Numbered from the stretch's first letter, positions 26,202 through 31,606 are shown. The stretch is DNA of 64,000 bases from Dehalococcoidia bacterium (GCA_965220565.1 CBDCQG010000001.1:532297-596296), one strand, 5' to 3'. Translations and numbers: made by a program. Notes: generated from the sequence alone by a model not told the origin.

Positions 26202-28541
26202 TCACCCTGAGCCTGTCGAAGGGTGAAAGTCCCACACCAACGCCTCCCCATCCGTCGTCAGCGTCACCGTCCCATGGATATCGGTCCGAAGAACCGCCGG
26301 CGCGGACGGCAATGACTCCAACCGCCCAAGCGTCTCGGGATGCGGATGCCCAAACCTGTTGCCCTCACCCGCAGTGATGATCGCAACGCGGGGCGACACG
26401 GCTTCCAGGAACTCCTCGCTCGAGGAATGGCGACTTCCCTGGTGCGCGATCTTCAGCACCGTCGCCTGCACGTCCACCCCGGAATCCAGCAGGAACCTCT
26501 CGCCGGGACTGTAAATGTCGGCGGTAAACAGGAACGACACGTCCCCATGAGACAGCTTCGCAACAACGGAATTGTCATCGTGTTCGGTGGCCGTGTTGAA
26601 TGGCCGGTCGGGCGGCGGATGCAATAGCTCTAAACGCGCTCCCCCTCCCAGGTCGATGGCCGTCCCCCGCTCCGCCCGCGCAACGGTCAGGTCCGTGCGC
26701 TCTCGCAGCGCCTCCGCCCACTGCCTGCCGTAAACGGTGCGCGATTCCAGCTGCGGGTCCACCACATACCCCACGTCGTAGCGTTTCAGGGTTTCCGTCA
26801 GCCCGATCAGGTGATCGGCGCTTGGATGCGTCAGGATCATGACATCGATGCGTCGTGACCACCACGGCAGGTGCTCCGCCAGCCGCTGCTGCAGCAATGC
26901 TCCGTCCGACCCTCCGTCGATTAGAACACGCCGACCCGTCGGCGATTCAATCAGGATGGAGTCGCCCTGTCCCACGTCCAGGACGTGAACCGTCAGCTGT
27001 TCTTCATGCGAGATATACGGAGCCGCCGCTCCAACCCCCGCTGTTGCCGTCAGGATGGCCAGCCCGCCCATGACCGGCCATGAGGTCAGCAGTCGCCGCC
27101 CGCTTGGCATGGAGATGCTCGGCAGAGACACCACCGGCCCCAGCAGTCCGGAGGGACTCCGCACTAGTGGTAGGAGGAACAAGCCGGCTATAACGAGGTA
27201 GATCAGGATCACCGCCCCCACGCTCAACGGCGCTATCGTGATCGCGGCGAATTCCGGCGACGAAAACAGCGACGATAGCCCGATCAGAAATGTCAGGAAC
27301 GGCCATGCCGCCCATGCCGCCGCTGATGCCAGCGCTCCGTCCGTAAACACGCCGGCCACGCCGGTCGCCGCGGATGTAAGCAGGACGGCAGGCAAGGCTG
27401 CTGTCCCCAACAGGCTCGCCGGTATCGTGAATAGCGAGGCCGCGCCGAAATAGTGCAACAGCAGCGGCTTGATTCCGATCACCGCGCCCAATGACGCGGC
27501 GATTCCCGTCGCGCCAACGTGCCGCCAACCCTCCGCCGGACGCGCGCCCGTGTCGGCGGTGTCTCCGCTGAATGGTGTACCCATAACGCGCCGTAAGGGA
27601 TCCGTGAGAAAGACGATTCCTGCCATCGCCGCCACAGTCATCTGGAACGACGCAGTCGCGATCACTCGAGGATCCCAGAGGGCGATGACCGTTGCCGCGA
27701 GCACCAGCGCCAGGCCCCCGCTCGGCTGCCGTCCGGAGGCGATCGCTCCCAGGTAAACGCTTCCCATGATCGCCGCTCGAACAACGGGCGGATTCAGTCC
27801 TGAGAGGATCGCGTATGCCCAGACGATTACAAATGGCAGCAGCACGTATAATCCGCGCCGCCGCCCCAGAACCATCGCGCTTGTTACCAGTGTCACGCCC
27901 AATACCACGCTAACGTGCAGGCCGGAGATCGCCAGCAGGTGCGCCGTCCCCGCCCGCCGCCACTCCTCGCTCAACTCTGACGGCAGATCATCCCGTTGCC
28001 CCAGCAGAAGCGCTCGCGCCAGCTCGGCCTGGGGCGATGGCAGGTTCCGCTCCAATGACGCGCTGAGGCGGCTGCGAACGGAGTTCAGCAGCACCATTGG
28101 CGGGGGCGCCCGCTCGACGAGCCGGAGATCGGGCCGCAACAGGATGACAAGATCGTCCGGCCAGGACGTGACCGCCTGTTGATCTCCCGGCGCAGCGCTC
28201 TCGCCATCGTCCTCCGGCGCAGGCAGGCCTGGAATCCCCGTCAACGTCACGCGATCGGCAGGGCCGAGTTCGTACGGCGGAGGATAGACCCACGCGATTG
28301 CATCTCCCGCCACGGCAAACGTCCCGACCTCCGCTTGGTCGAGCAGATGTGCGTTCTCAAGCGTTACCCGAACGCGAGTCAACTGCCCGCGACGTGACGG
28401 AGCATCCCGCACGACGCCCTCAAAAGCTGTCTCCCTGCCCGCAATCTGCCCCGCAGGAATCGCCGTCGGATTCGTATCCGGCAAGGCCCCCCGCGCCATT
28501 CCCGCCAGAACCCCCACGGCGATCAGGCAGGCCAAAAGAAG
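26202..28541 (-). pseudogene. comEC: comEC/Rec2 DNA uptake channel, 3' part (interrupted by IS1595 element)
   Basis: AHLLAISGLHV, LDVGQGD, THPSADH, LKIAHQGS; joins in frame with 31464..31606 once the element and one target copy are removed. Confidence 0.92.
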
Positions 28542-28627
28542 GGGAGTTATATACAATCCTACCCATGACATAGGCGAACGGCTGTTGCGTTGACGGGTAT
28601 AGGAGCGGCGTATATCCTCAACTCGCT

Positions 28628-29878
28628 ATGACGCTGGCATCGGGAAACTTCGTCAACCGGACACTGTGGACGGGTGACAACCTTGAGATTCTGCGGGGTC
28701 TCAATTCCGAGACGGTAGACCTCATCTACCTCGACCCGCCGTTCAACTCGAATCGCAACTACGAAGCACCTGTCGGCAGCAAGGCGGCGGGAGCCGCGTT
28801 CAAAGACACGTGGACGCTCGACGATCTCGACGTAGCGTGGATGGGCCTCATCGCCGACGAACAGCCGCCCATCGCCAACCTGCTCAAGACGGCGAGCATC
28901 GTCCACGGCGCGGGGATGCAATCCTACCTGACCATGATGGCCGTTCGGCTGTTAGAGCTTCGGCGCGTCCTCAAGACGACGGGGAGTATCTACCTACACT
29001 GCGACCCGTTCGCGTCCCACTATCTCAAGATGCTCATGGACGCCGTGTTCGGACGCGTGAACTACCGCAATGAGGTTGTGTGGTCATACCGCCGCTGGCC
29101 GTCGCAGGCGAAGCGGTATCAGTCCATGCATGACGTGATTCTGTTCTACGGGAAGGGAGAGTCCGTCACATTCAACGTGGCATTCGAGCCGCCCAGTGTG
29201 AGTTACCTCAAGCGATTCAAGGGCAAGACGCAGGTTCTTGACCCTGAGACCAAGACGCGGAAGCTCGTCGTGGACGAGCCGACGAAGGGACTCCCTCAGC
29301 GTGACGTATTCGACATATCGATTGTGGCCGGTTCGTCGAAGGAACGCATCGGCTATCCGACTCAGAAGCCGCTGGCCCTGCTAGAACGAATCATCGCGGC
29401 ATCGTCGAACGAGGGAGACGTGGTGCTCGATCCGTTCTGTGGATGCGCGACGGCGTGTGTGGCGGCTGAGAAGCTGGGCAGGCAATGGGTAGGCATCGAC
29501 CTATCCCCGAAGGCCGTCGAGCTAGTGAACCTGCGCCTACAGGACACGATGGGGAGTCTCTTTCACAACCGGCTCGTCACGGCGCGGACGGACATACCAC
29601 GCCGGACGGACATTGACGCGCCCATCCACTACCGCAAGAACGCTCACGTCCTGTTCGGCCAGCAGGAGGGCCGTTGCGCGGGCTGTGACATGGACTTCCC
29701 GTTCAAGATATTCGAGGTTGACCATATCGTGCCAAAATCGAGGGGGGGGGGGAGACCACCTCGACAACCTTCAGCTTCTATGCCCGTCATGCAATCGCAT
29801 CAAGGGAGACAGGCCGCAGGAATACCTGATGGCACAGCGAAAGGAGATGAGCCATGCCTAGACCTCCGAAGCCGCTAG
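28628..29878 (+). CDS. N6/N4 DNA methyltransferase (beta class) fused to an HNH endonuclease that is frameshifted at a G11 tract
   Basis: YLDPPF, YPTQKP, DPFCGCAT, CAGC...VDHIVP; the rest of the HNH (DHLDNLQLLCPSCNRIKG, stop at 29861) is in another frame after Gs 29742..29752. Confidence 0.9.
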   Translation: MTLASGNFVNRTLWTGDNLEILRGLNSETVDLIYLDPPFNSNRNYEAPVGSKAAGAAFKDTWTLDDLDVAWMGLIADEQPPIANLLKTASIVHGAGMQSYLTMMAVRLLELRRVLKTTGSIYLHCDPFASHYLKMLMDAVFGRVNYRNEVVWSYRRWPSQAKRYQSMHDVILFYGKGESVTFNVAFEPPSVSYLKRFKGKTQVLDPETKTRKLVVDEPTKGLPQRDVFDISIVAGSSKERIGYPTQKPLALLERIIAASSNEGDVVLDPFCGCATACVAAEKLGRQWVGIDLSPKAVELVNLRLQDTMGSLFHNRLVTARTDIPRRTDIDAPIHYRKNAHVLFGQQEGRCAGCDMDFPFKIFEVDHIVPKSRGGGRPPRQPSASMPVMQSHQGRQAAGIPDGTAKGDEPCLDLRSR

Positions 29879-29952
29879 AGCGGATACCCGATACGTTCGA
29901 GAACATCATCAAGGCACTAGTCAAGCCCGTGAAGAAGCCGACGGGCAAGTAA
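29854..29952 (+). CDS. small basic peptide, 32 aa (MPRPPKPLERIPDTFENIIKALVKPVKKPTGK)
   Basis: AAGGAG RBS; overlaps the end of the MTase-HNH gene. Confidence 0.55.
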   Translation: MPRPPKPLERIPDTFENIIKALVKPVKKPTGK

Positions 29953-31096: not shown

Positions 31097-31446
31097 GTGA
31101 CGACAACAGCACCATAGGCAAGACGGTATCAGACTACGAGGCAATCAAGAAGCATATCGCCTGCGTCAAGAAGGAGCTTCTCGACGTAGGCACTGCGCTT
31201 GCCGTGTTGGGACAAGCGTTGAGAGACAACCCTGACAGCGTCCGCGTTGACGACGGAGCGGTCAACATCACGAGCCCATCGCCGATTCTCGGTAGACCTT
31301 CGACGCGGACAATCGACGGCTCGACCTTCGACGTGAACGGCATCGACCGACTGCTATCTGACCTAGCCCAATCGACTCAAGACCGCACGCGACTTGAGGC
31401 AACCCTGCGAGACCTCAACCTCGGCGGTCTCATATCCGATGGGTAG
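31093..31446 (+). CDS. hypothetical passenger protein
   Basis: ATGA overlap with the transposase; stop codon lies inside the right IR. Confidence 0.7.
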   Translation: MSDDNSTIGKTVSDYEAIKKHIACVKKELLDVGTALAVLGQALRDNPDSVRVDDGAVNITSPSPILGRPSTRTIDGSTFDVNGIDRLLSDLAQSTQDRTRLEATLRDLNLGGLISDG

Positions 31447-31463
31447 GATTGTATATAACTCCC

Positions 31464-31606
31464 AAAAGAAGACTCCCTCGACGTGACAGCAAGGCGGCCA
31501 GCCCGGCCAGTGCTGCGAGAGCGACAACAAGCGGGAGCGACAGGTGAATGACAAGAGAGAGCGCCAGGCCGCACAGTGTCCCGACGGCCAGCGAAAAAGG
31601 ACGCAT
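31464..31606 (-). pseudogene. comEC: comEC 5' fragment
   Basis: ATG 31606 gives MRPFSLAVGTLCGLALSLVIHLSLPLVVALAALAGLAALLSRRGSLL, directly after comEA and in frame with the 3' part. Confidence 0.88.

Follow-up and report, generated by a model that had tools for sequence, protein, structure and literature searches.

A recently inserted IS1595-family transporter insertion sequence in comEC carries an 8/4 allo-tRNA next to a terminator-like hairpin

The locus described here lies in a 64,000-nucleotide stretch of DNA from a Dehalococcoidia bacterium (GCA_965220565.1, CBDCQG010000001.1:532297-596296), which is referred to below as the window. The DNA belongs to the 1.97-Mb genome of a small marine-type bacterium, represented by a metagenome-type assembly in 4 contigs. 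In the window, the gene comEC is interrupted by a 2,922-bp element classed as an IS1595-family "transporter IS", an insertion sequence (IS) with passenger genes between its ends. Features of the element and of the severed gene, with positions counted from the first letter of the window, are collected in Table 1. On the plus strand, a DNA methyltransferase (MTase) gene running into a broken HNH nuclease half is followed by the gene of a small basic protein, p32, the stop codon of which (29952) precedes, in this order, a transfer RNA (tRNA) gene lying antisense, a hairpin, the transposase promoter and the transposase; an open reading frame (ORF) of 117 amino acids (aa) closes the series.

Table 1. 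Features at the interrupted comEC locus in order of position in the window (IRL and IRR, left and right terminal inverted repeats)
Feature	Position	Strand	Evidence or remark
comEC, distal 779 codons (Competence, Lactamase_B, DUF4131)	26202..28541	-	Pfam and congener alignment
Left target-site duplication copy, AAAAGAAG, 8 bp	28534..28541	.	
IRL, GGGAGTTATATACAATCCTACCCAT	28542..28566	+	End type GGGAATTATATAC, as in related loci with perfect 8-bp duplications
Beta-class DNA methyltransferase (N6_N4_Mtase) and first HNH half, ending at the G run	28628..29752	+	PF01555, 8e-46, residues 30-300; HNH_5 positions 1-26
G11 homopolymer, shifting the HNH frame	29742..29752	+	G10 would give SRGGGDHLDNLQLLC
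Second HNH half, in a different frame	29754..29861	+	PF01844 positions 24-47, 1.8e-6
p32, 32-aa small basic protein, truncated family member	29854..29952	+	ATG overlaps the HNH stop; tblastn, profile
8/4 allo-tRNA, anticodon GCG, G73, 8-bp variable-arm stem, no encoded CCA	29969..30062	-	ARAGORN, 94 nt
Perfect 14-bp hairpin with TTTTTGTT behind it, resembling a terminator of plus-strand transcripts that have crossed the tRNA antisense	30066..30107	+	-27.3 kcal/mol, z -5.4
Transposase promoter-like site, TTGACA-18-TAGAAT	30106..30135	+	11/12, consensus scan
IS1595-family transposase, 311 aa, zinc ribbon and DDE domain	30161..31096	+	PF12762 1.9e-34, PF12760 1.1e-10; NF033547 174.7 bits (cut-off 75)
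117-aa orphan ORF	31093..31446	+	Start overlaps the transposase stop (ATGA), end inside IRR; coding-like third-position GC content
IRR	31439..31463	-	Inverted-repeat detection
Right target-site duplication copy, AAAAGAAG, 8 bp	31464..31471	.	
comEC, first 45 codons, severed by the insertion	31472..31606	-	ORF and congener alignment
comEA-like gene, 4 SLBB domains and HHH_3, directly upstream of comEC	31613..33022	-	

IRL and IRR are complementary at 25 of 25 nucleotides (nt), with an extended match of 39 nt at 85%, and the same 8-bp duplication flanks them on both sides. An earlier note on this DNA, made from the sequence alone, had reported perfect 25-bp repeats and an intact duplication, all coordinates of which hold, and had assigned the element to the IS1595 family with passenger genes. 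This assignment is confirmed by the DDE transposase with its N-terminal zinc ribbon, the terminal inverted repeats and the 8-bp direct duplication, whereas the MTase-HNH gene, the tRNA and the 117-aa ORF between IRL and IRR make the element a transporter IS. The founding paper for IS1595 transporter ISs is that of Siguier, Gagnevin and Chandler in 2009. Neither a second copy, nor a solo inverted repeat, nor another IS1595 transposase was found in the element's own 1.97-Mb genome; an exact search of the genome collection with the inverted repeat returned 0 matches, and no full-length match to the element occurred among 40 relatives. The search for further copies and their cargo that the earlier note had proposed thus returned no second copy in the data covered. 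According to a TnCentral preprint, transporter ISs are restricted to the IS1595 and IS66 families. Overall, the element is a recently transposed, single-copy IS1595-family transporter IS with GGGAATTATATAC-type ends. These ends fit 'ggnnatTAT', the pattern of the ISNwi1 subgroup.

Excision of 28542-31471 by script joined the two parts of comEC into one ORF of 824 aa with no internal stop, which reads ...LLSRRGSLLLACLIAVG... / ...LLSRRGSLLLACLIAVGVLAGMARG... across the former insertion point and aligns, gap-free and colinear, with the uninterrupted comEC of 10/10 congeners examined (same genus). Both the in-frame restoration of the gene and the recent date of the insertion, as claimed earlier, are therefore supported. 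As it stands, the locus retains the ComEC domains DUF4131, Competence and metallo-beta-lactamase, distributed over a gene that is no longer a single uninterrupted ORF, and comEC is predicted to be inactivated, with a loss of competence, or, at minimum, deprived of its first membrane segment. A minus-strand ATG at 28569-28571, within IRL, opens an ORF (26202-28571) that exits the element in frame with comEC; the hybrid product would start with MSWVGLYITP-LLLACLIAVG... and be without only ~45 N-terminal residues of ComEC. Given an outward promoter, such a shortened ComEC could still be made. Of the earlier proposal that the element blocks DNA uptake, the splitting of comEC stands, but the block itself would be a further step, against which the in-frame hybrid ORF speaks. 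The hit in comEC is in itself an ordinary result of transposition.

The methyltransferase domain is intact, covering profile positions 1-219 of 221 of PF01555, and the gene was called as a type II MTase by PADLOC. In comparison, the HNH domain is split, with profile positions 1-26 in the MTase frame and 24-47 in another, and an intact nuclease is not encoded. A G10 version would read SRGGGDHLDNLQLLCPSCN through the HNH domain, and 8 homologues have S(R/K)GG(T/S)DH... at the site of the G run, with G runs there of no more than 3-4. With its second HNH half shifted into another frame, the gene as it stands can yield the methyltransferase alone; the nuclease is thus off, and the element would deliver at most an orphan methyltransferase. 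The G10/G11 tract would silence the nuclease either as a reversible switch or as a dead end, and this silencing would let the element reside in an incompletely protected genome. The MTase-HNH cargo of the earlier note is accordingly present in its domains but lacks a continuous frame, and its description as a restriction-modification-like gene fails, the nuclease half being out of frame also in the independent contigs treated below. In the intact homologue L063 (related loci carry L numbers here), the methyltransferase domain matches solved beta-class type II N6-adenine/N4-cytosine enzymes, M.MboIIA and M.RsrI, and the HNH half matches models of IscB/Cas9-type HNH nucleases. In contrast to these systems, MTase and HNH are fused in one polypeptide here, the fusion in the window being broken by G11; a structure search with L063 found no MTase-HNH fusion among solved structures. 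Three chromosomal paralogues of the element's methyltransferase with 35-47% identity lie at C1:105744-106814, C1:268302-269144 and C1:1506425-1507249, and the congeners hold many more. G/C runs of at least 9 number just six genome-wide; the others (G10 at C1:943486, C12 at C1:982772, C12 at C2:288047, C19 at C2:307092 and C16 at C2:319230) are mostly intergenic or at gene starts, e.g., upstream of a large secreted-type protein, and are possible phase-variable sites or assembly-prone spots.

The assembly was checked against independently built contigs from four public runs of one sample, possibly the source sample of the window. The left junction is bridged by contigs of four runs with 0 differences (X1 record 1, 28100-28747) and the right junction by contigs of two runs, again with 0 differences (X1 record 8, 30893-31900). 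X1 record 5 spans 29695-30910 and so takes in the G run and the small ORF as well as the tRNA and the transposase start, with 0 differences and 0 gaps, and the depth of unique element parts is similar to that of the flanks (~11-15 in X1). It might be argued that the element is an assembly artefact, or G11 a homopolymer sequencing error in an MTase-HNH gene that is really intact, as the assembly is of metagenome type in 4 contigs, homopolymers are prone to error, and the X2 and X3 contigs break at or near the G run. We consider this hardly credible in view of the two bridged junctions and of X1 record 5, which crosses the G run without a gap at a depth of 13.6 and with no indel listed, even if all four runs represent a single sample that may be the window's own. 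Misassembly, the circumstance under which the earlier note would have withdrawn its reading, is thus not the case. No contig joining an empty comEC site was listed in the four runs; since contigs drop rare variants, an empty allele may exist as a minority. The runs back the assembly but show the element nowhere beyond that sample. Motifs of the methyltransferase and of IS1595 were observed at very high depth in contigs of the sample, which points to a community rich in such genes.

A search of one-per-species genomes with the transposase gave 457 relatives, the best 80 of which were kept. These 80 share 48-67% identity with it and come mostly from metagenome-assembled genomes (MAGs) of Dehalococcoidia and other Chloroflexota, the remaining sources including Binatia, Rhodobacterales, Terriglobia, Flavobacteriaceae and others. 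Clear end pairs of type GGGAATTATATAC were recognised at 60 of 89 loci with a transposase, 49 of them with a perfect 8-bp duplication (the window's own locus, L001, included); the duplications are usually AT-rich, and the elements measure 1.4 to 5.6 kb. Clear ends, duplications and this size range together make the whole clade cargo-carrying. The clade shares with known IS1595 transporter ISs the single DDE transposase with a zinc ribbon, the short inverted repeats, the 8-bp duplication and the internal passengers. It differs from them in a second conserved gene for a small RGRP-type protein, normally the last before IRR, in a cargo consisting mainly of DNA methyltransferases and restriction-type genes, and in the tRNA genes of a subset. 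The leader of the transposase gene, with its promoter, aligns to the leaders of relatives; the idea that a relic IRL lies inside the element, ahead of the transposase, was rejected, as the similarity reflects the conserved transposase promoter.

The small RGRP-type gene is represented in the window by p32. Starting from tblastn and iterating a profile on six-frame translations, p32-type genes were detected at 51 of 92 loci, usually as the last gene of the element, stopping ~30-40 nt short of the outer edge of IRR. The family occurs in 36/401 genomes of the class, 11/21 congeners among them, and it has no counterpart among the models of Pfam, NCBIfam or PADLOC. Its motif, K/R-RGRP...MPExIPDTPENIA...PKKxW, is extended by the alignment to the consensus K/R-x-RGRP-x4-MPExI(P/D)(D/A)(T/S)PExIAxA...PKKxWxY; the p32 of the window is without the basic N-terminus. 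RGRP with basic flanks resembles an AT-hook and suggests DNA binding, and the ends and targets of the clade elements are AT-rich. An MTase-HNH gene followed by the small protein, with stop and start overlapping, recurs in L012, L013, L018, L035, L037, L132, L140 and L144. By its distribution, p32 is a core gene of the IS clade, a hallmark protein and not the cargo peptide for which the earlier note took it. The 117-aa ORF, in comparison, remains what that note called it, a cargo protein of no known family: it matches only itself among 5.8 billion clusters and has no match to Pfam, NCBIfam or PADLOC, and its AF2 model is poor (pLDDT 57.7), with weak atlas matches (up to 0.83). The element as a whole is a mosaic of parts found separately in relatives, the transposase having 77.7% identity to L089, the methyltransferase 79% to L132 (order Tnp, MTase-HNH, p32, IRR) and the tRNA region 76% over 96 nt to L071.

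The non-canonical tRNA noticed earlier proved to be an 8/4 allo-tRNA. Its best Rfam match is tRNA-Sec (RF01852) at 45 bits, just below the gathering score of 47, and its fold combines acceptor and T stems of 8 and 4 bp with a short D arm, an anticodon stem of 5 bp bearing the loop CUGCGAA, and an 8-bp stem in the variable arm. The 8+4-bp acceptor branch (12 bp), long variable arm, G73, tRNA-Sec-like score and non-serine anticodon are all those of an 8/4 allo-tRNA. Covariation was examined in a set consisting of the window tRNA and four distinct homologues, one from L071 (GAG) and three metagenomic (GAG or GAU). Overall, 96.4% of cells are paired, the 8 acceptor and 4 T pairs being 95-100% paired across the 5 sequences, and compensatory changes occur in 10 of 28 pairs, in the acceptor, anticodon and variable stems, a count not reached by any of 500 shuffles. 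U33 and A37 flank the GCG anticodon, with U33 and a purine at 37 kept in the homologues, and the window tRNA scores 99.1 bits on its own model. This pattern suggests a selected, folded RNA. Searching 150 genomes of the class with the allo-tRNA model gave only weak matches of 35-39 bits, maybe tRNA-Ser or tRNA-Sec, and none in 7 congeners. Two metagenome allo-tRNAs, L100:1826-1916 and L103:1549-1639, are identical but for one anticodon base (GAG vs GAU), and anticodons seem to switch on a fixed allo-tRNA body. A 277-aa ORF length common to the metagenome loci was dismissed as a coincidence.

According to Mukai et al. (2017; PMC5389517), allo-tRNAs were originally found as sub-threshold tRNA-Sec matches, and GCG is among their three predominant anticodons. 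The 'major' group of 8/4 allo-tRNA(GCG) described there shares with the window tRNA the 8+4 stems, the long variable arm, the tRNA-Sec-like D arm, the anticodon and the near-threshold score, and many of its soil sequences closely resemble that of the window, with GGAGGGTATTGCC...CTGCGAA...GAGTG in common. The window tRNA differs by G73 from the U73 ('T') of the published GCG rows examined. Moreover, the taxa named in the paper are Clostridia, Proteobacteria and Acidobacteria, whereas MAGs of Dehalococcoidia/Chloroflexota account for most relatives of the window transposase, and here the genomic context is resolved, a transposon with a target duplication at its borders. Carriage of an own tRNA gene is a trait shared with phages and other mobile elements; here, however, the carrier is a 2.9-kb IS, body and anticodon are mismatched, and the gene is embedded antisense in the 3' end of another.

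The host has a full set of 49 tRNA genes, including tRNA-Sec (98 nt, C1:1567980-1568077) and a canonical CGY-reading tRNA-Arg with GCG instead of ACG (C1:1021771-1021848). The allo-tRNA has the same first six acceptor pairs (GGAGGG/CCCUCC) and the same G73 as the host tRNA-Ser, and a long variable arm with G73 or U73 indicates the seryl-tRNA synthetase (SerRS), as stated by Mukai et al. (2017). Given this agreement with the host tRNA-Ser, which includes the long variable arm, charging by SerRS and a low-level reading of CGC/CGU as serine are most likely, to judge from these identity elements. C35 and G36 are identity elements of the arginyl-tRNA synthetase (ArgRS), which may compete for the tRNA. 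Several points count against efficient serine decoding. CGC is the host's commonest Arg codon (31.7 per 1000) and is served by the canonical tRNA-Arg(GCG); and of the 16 CGC/CGU codons in the transposase, six stand in columns with Arg in 75/75 relatives, three more in columns with Arg in 64-72/75 and none in a Ser column. With CGC at invariant arginines, efficient Arg-to-Ser decoding would harm the element itself. Self-recoding, i.e., a tRNA matched to codons kept in the element's own genes, is therefore unsupported, and the element can read its own genes independently of the tRNA; likewise, 0 of 6 CTY codons in the transposase of L071 (GAG) fall in Ser-majority columns. The own-gene codon test speaks for a weakly active tRNA, for arginine charging or for a function other than decoding. 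Of these, arginine charging through the anticodon would make the allo-tRNA an extra, odd-shaped tRNA-Arg for the commonest Arg codon: CGC accounts for 3.2% of codons, just one canonical tRNA-Arg(GCG) is present in the host, and the use of CGC at invariant arginines in the element's genes fits only if CGC means Arg. The serine-type acceptor stem, G73 and variable arm contradict it, as do the Leu anticodon (GAG) of the sister tRNA in L071 on the same body and, in Mukai et al. (2017), related allo-tRNAs that inserted Ser or Ala in Escherichia coli according to their identity elements, though with changed anticodons; we regard this alternative as improbable.

The arrangement around the tRNA recurs in the clade. 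In six distinct elements, a strong hairpin was found at a distance of 3-6 nt from the 5' end of the tRNA: the window (allo-tRNA, GCG; 3 nt), L045 (74-nt tRNA, CAC; 6 nt), L071 (homologous allo-tRNA, GAG; 5 nt), the L027 type with three copies in one genome (74-nt tRNA, CGG; 6 nt), L069 (tRNA GAA; 5 nt) and L074 (two tRNAs, GCU and AGG; 3 nt). Behind the hairpin, the antisense strand of the tRNA continues into a T-rich tail in all six, weakly so in L069. The tRNA stands tail-to-tail with a p32-type gene in the window, in L045, which has the same order with an unrelated tRNA and hairpin, and in the L027 type, whereas in L071 the p32-type ORF runs into the tRNA; in the latter two, as in the window, the hairpin follows the antisense tRNA. 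L069 and L074 have no p32-type gene there, and the segment from IRL to the transposase promoter holds both tRNA and hairpin. If tail-to-tail pairs are counted in which 2-36 nt separate the end of the ORF from the closest end of the tRNA, 6 of the 51 p32 loci qualify; they represent 4 distinct elements, namely those of the window, L045, L071 and the L027 type (left copy in L026, L027 and L028). At the default threshold of ARAGORN, 99 loci contain 23 tRNAs, three of them the window's own, or approximately one per 40 kb, which by our own estimate makes such adjacency unexpected by chance. As this layout returns in other elements around tRNAs that are for the most part unrelated, tRNA and hairpin can be read as a functional block, for which a regulatory or insulating role is suggested. 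Some clade tRNAs have disagreeing bodies and anticodons (L026:4703-4789, plus strand; L032:2000-2088 and L074:4718-4882, minus strand; Rfam 44-60 bits for those scanned): there are class-II bodies (long arm, A73) with an Arg GCG or a Val UAC anticodon, a 76-nt short-arm tRNA with Ser GCU and a 78-nt tRNA with AGG.

How the block might work can be sketched from the gene order. The tRNA would be transcribed divergently from the transposase, possibly driven by a minus-strand TATAAT that, read by eye, overlaps the -10 of the transposase promoter and faces the tRNA. The 3'-terminal part of the MTase-p32 transcript would contain the tRNA in antisense, immediately ahead of the terminator of that transcript, and transcripts crossing the tRNA antisense would end just before the transposase promoter. 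The block might thereby shield this promoter from read-through, and it might couple the levels of tRNA and p32-operon RNA through convergent transcription or antisense pairing. A number of findings weigh against such a role. The consensus scan neither listed the hairpin as a terminator nor found a strong tRNA promoter, the TATAAT being our own reading. In L032, the tRNA lies 98 nt ahead of the transposase and lacks a strong hairpin. Of 29 additional p32 loci in genomes of the class, 0 have an adjacent tRNA, and the allo-tRNA was found in just the window and L071 among 92 sources. A pattern scan of metagenomes recovered 5 homologue loci (GAG or GAU), none of which adjoins an IS1595 transposase.

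The same rarity would suit a tRNA that is a neutral hitch-hiker, picked up with neighbouring DNA and decaying, with no role for element or host. The very heterogeneous cargo of the clade agrees with this, and so do the mismatches or odd loops of several IS-borne tRNAs, the position of L097 at 12 bp from a host tRNA, and L042, where a host tRNA-His adjoins the element outside its IRL. Against it stand the intact stems of the window tRNA throughout, the compensatory changes with retained U33 and purine 37, and the hairpin spacing that recurs among mostly unrelated tRNAs; a mere hitch-hiker therefore seems rather unlikely to us. The best explanation as a whole, held with moderate confidence, is a mosaic transporter IS that recently entered comEC with its nuclease off, carrying a selected allo-tRNA in a functional tRNA-hairpin block. 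A bolder version, to which we would give only a small chance, is that a branch of IS1595 transporter ISs keeps a tRNA as a working part, often one of disagreeing body and anticodon (allo-tRNA GCG or GAG, class-II bodies with Arg or Val anticodons), always with the hairpin 3-6 nt from its 5' end and often antisense in the 3' end of the small-protein transcript. The long-lived mis-decoding tRNA would then act in the manner of a toxin and the complementary tail of the mRNA, being short-lived, as its antidote, the balance of the two being set by convergent transcription. IS10 RNA-OUT is a cis-antisense control in an insertion sequence, and hok/sok is a type I toxin-antitoxin pair. Overlapping convergent transcripts, one of them a stable structured RNA, would be common to both and to the present element, as an analogy only; the structured RNA here differs in being a tRNA. 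If true, this would be a transposon addiction or regulation module built from a tRNA, and such ISs would spread missense tRNAs between phyla.

Transporter ISs and allo-tRNAs are both known already; what is new, and where the value lies, is the resolved and repeated context of the tRNA. The literature search found no description of IS-borne allo-tRNAs, many subscription papers lying outside its coverage, and the terms IS1595 and methyltransferase are absent from the accessible part of the text of Mukai et al. (2017; PMC5389517). Allo-tRNAs have been known since 2017 with no established biological role and only a loose published genomic context. Here, one of them has exact transposon boundaries, an insertion absent from the site in 10/10 congeners, a known host tRNA set and a repeated layout, and the purpose of allo-tRNAs thereby becomes an experimentally approachable question.

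Apart from the tRNA, the clade is of interest as a widespread carrier of methyltransferases and restriction genes with a previously unnoticed second core gene. Cargo is heterogeneous across the relatives, with two recurring modules: in one, the small-protein gene comes after MTase-HNH; in the other, it is combined with an antisense tRNA and a terminator. Pfam scans identified MTase-HNH fusions in L012, L013, L024, L035, L041, L058 and L063, an MT-A70 or N6_N4 methyltransferase with a BglII-type endonuclease in L017 and L076, a C5 methyltransferase with an NgoFVII-like protein in L055 and an EcoRI-type methyltransferase in L044 and L078; GmrSD parts, T5orf172 and helix-turn-helix (HTH) proteins recur as well. 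Complete-looking restriction-modification pairs were observed inside bounded IS1595-type elements at L017/L019, L076, L055, L044 and L078, and the larger elements L010, L064 and L084 contain nested transposases of other types (IS110-type, DDE_Tnp_1 and Mutator family).

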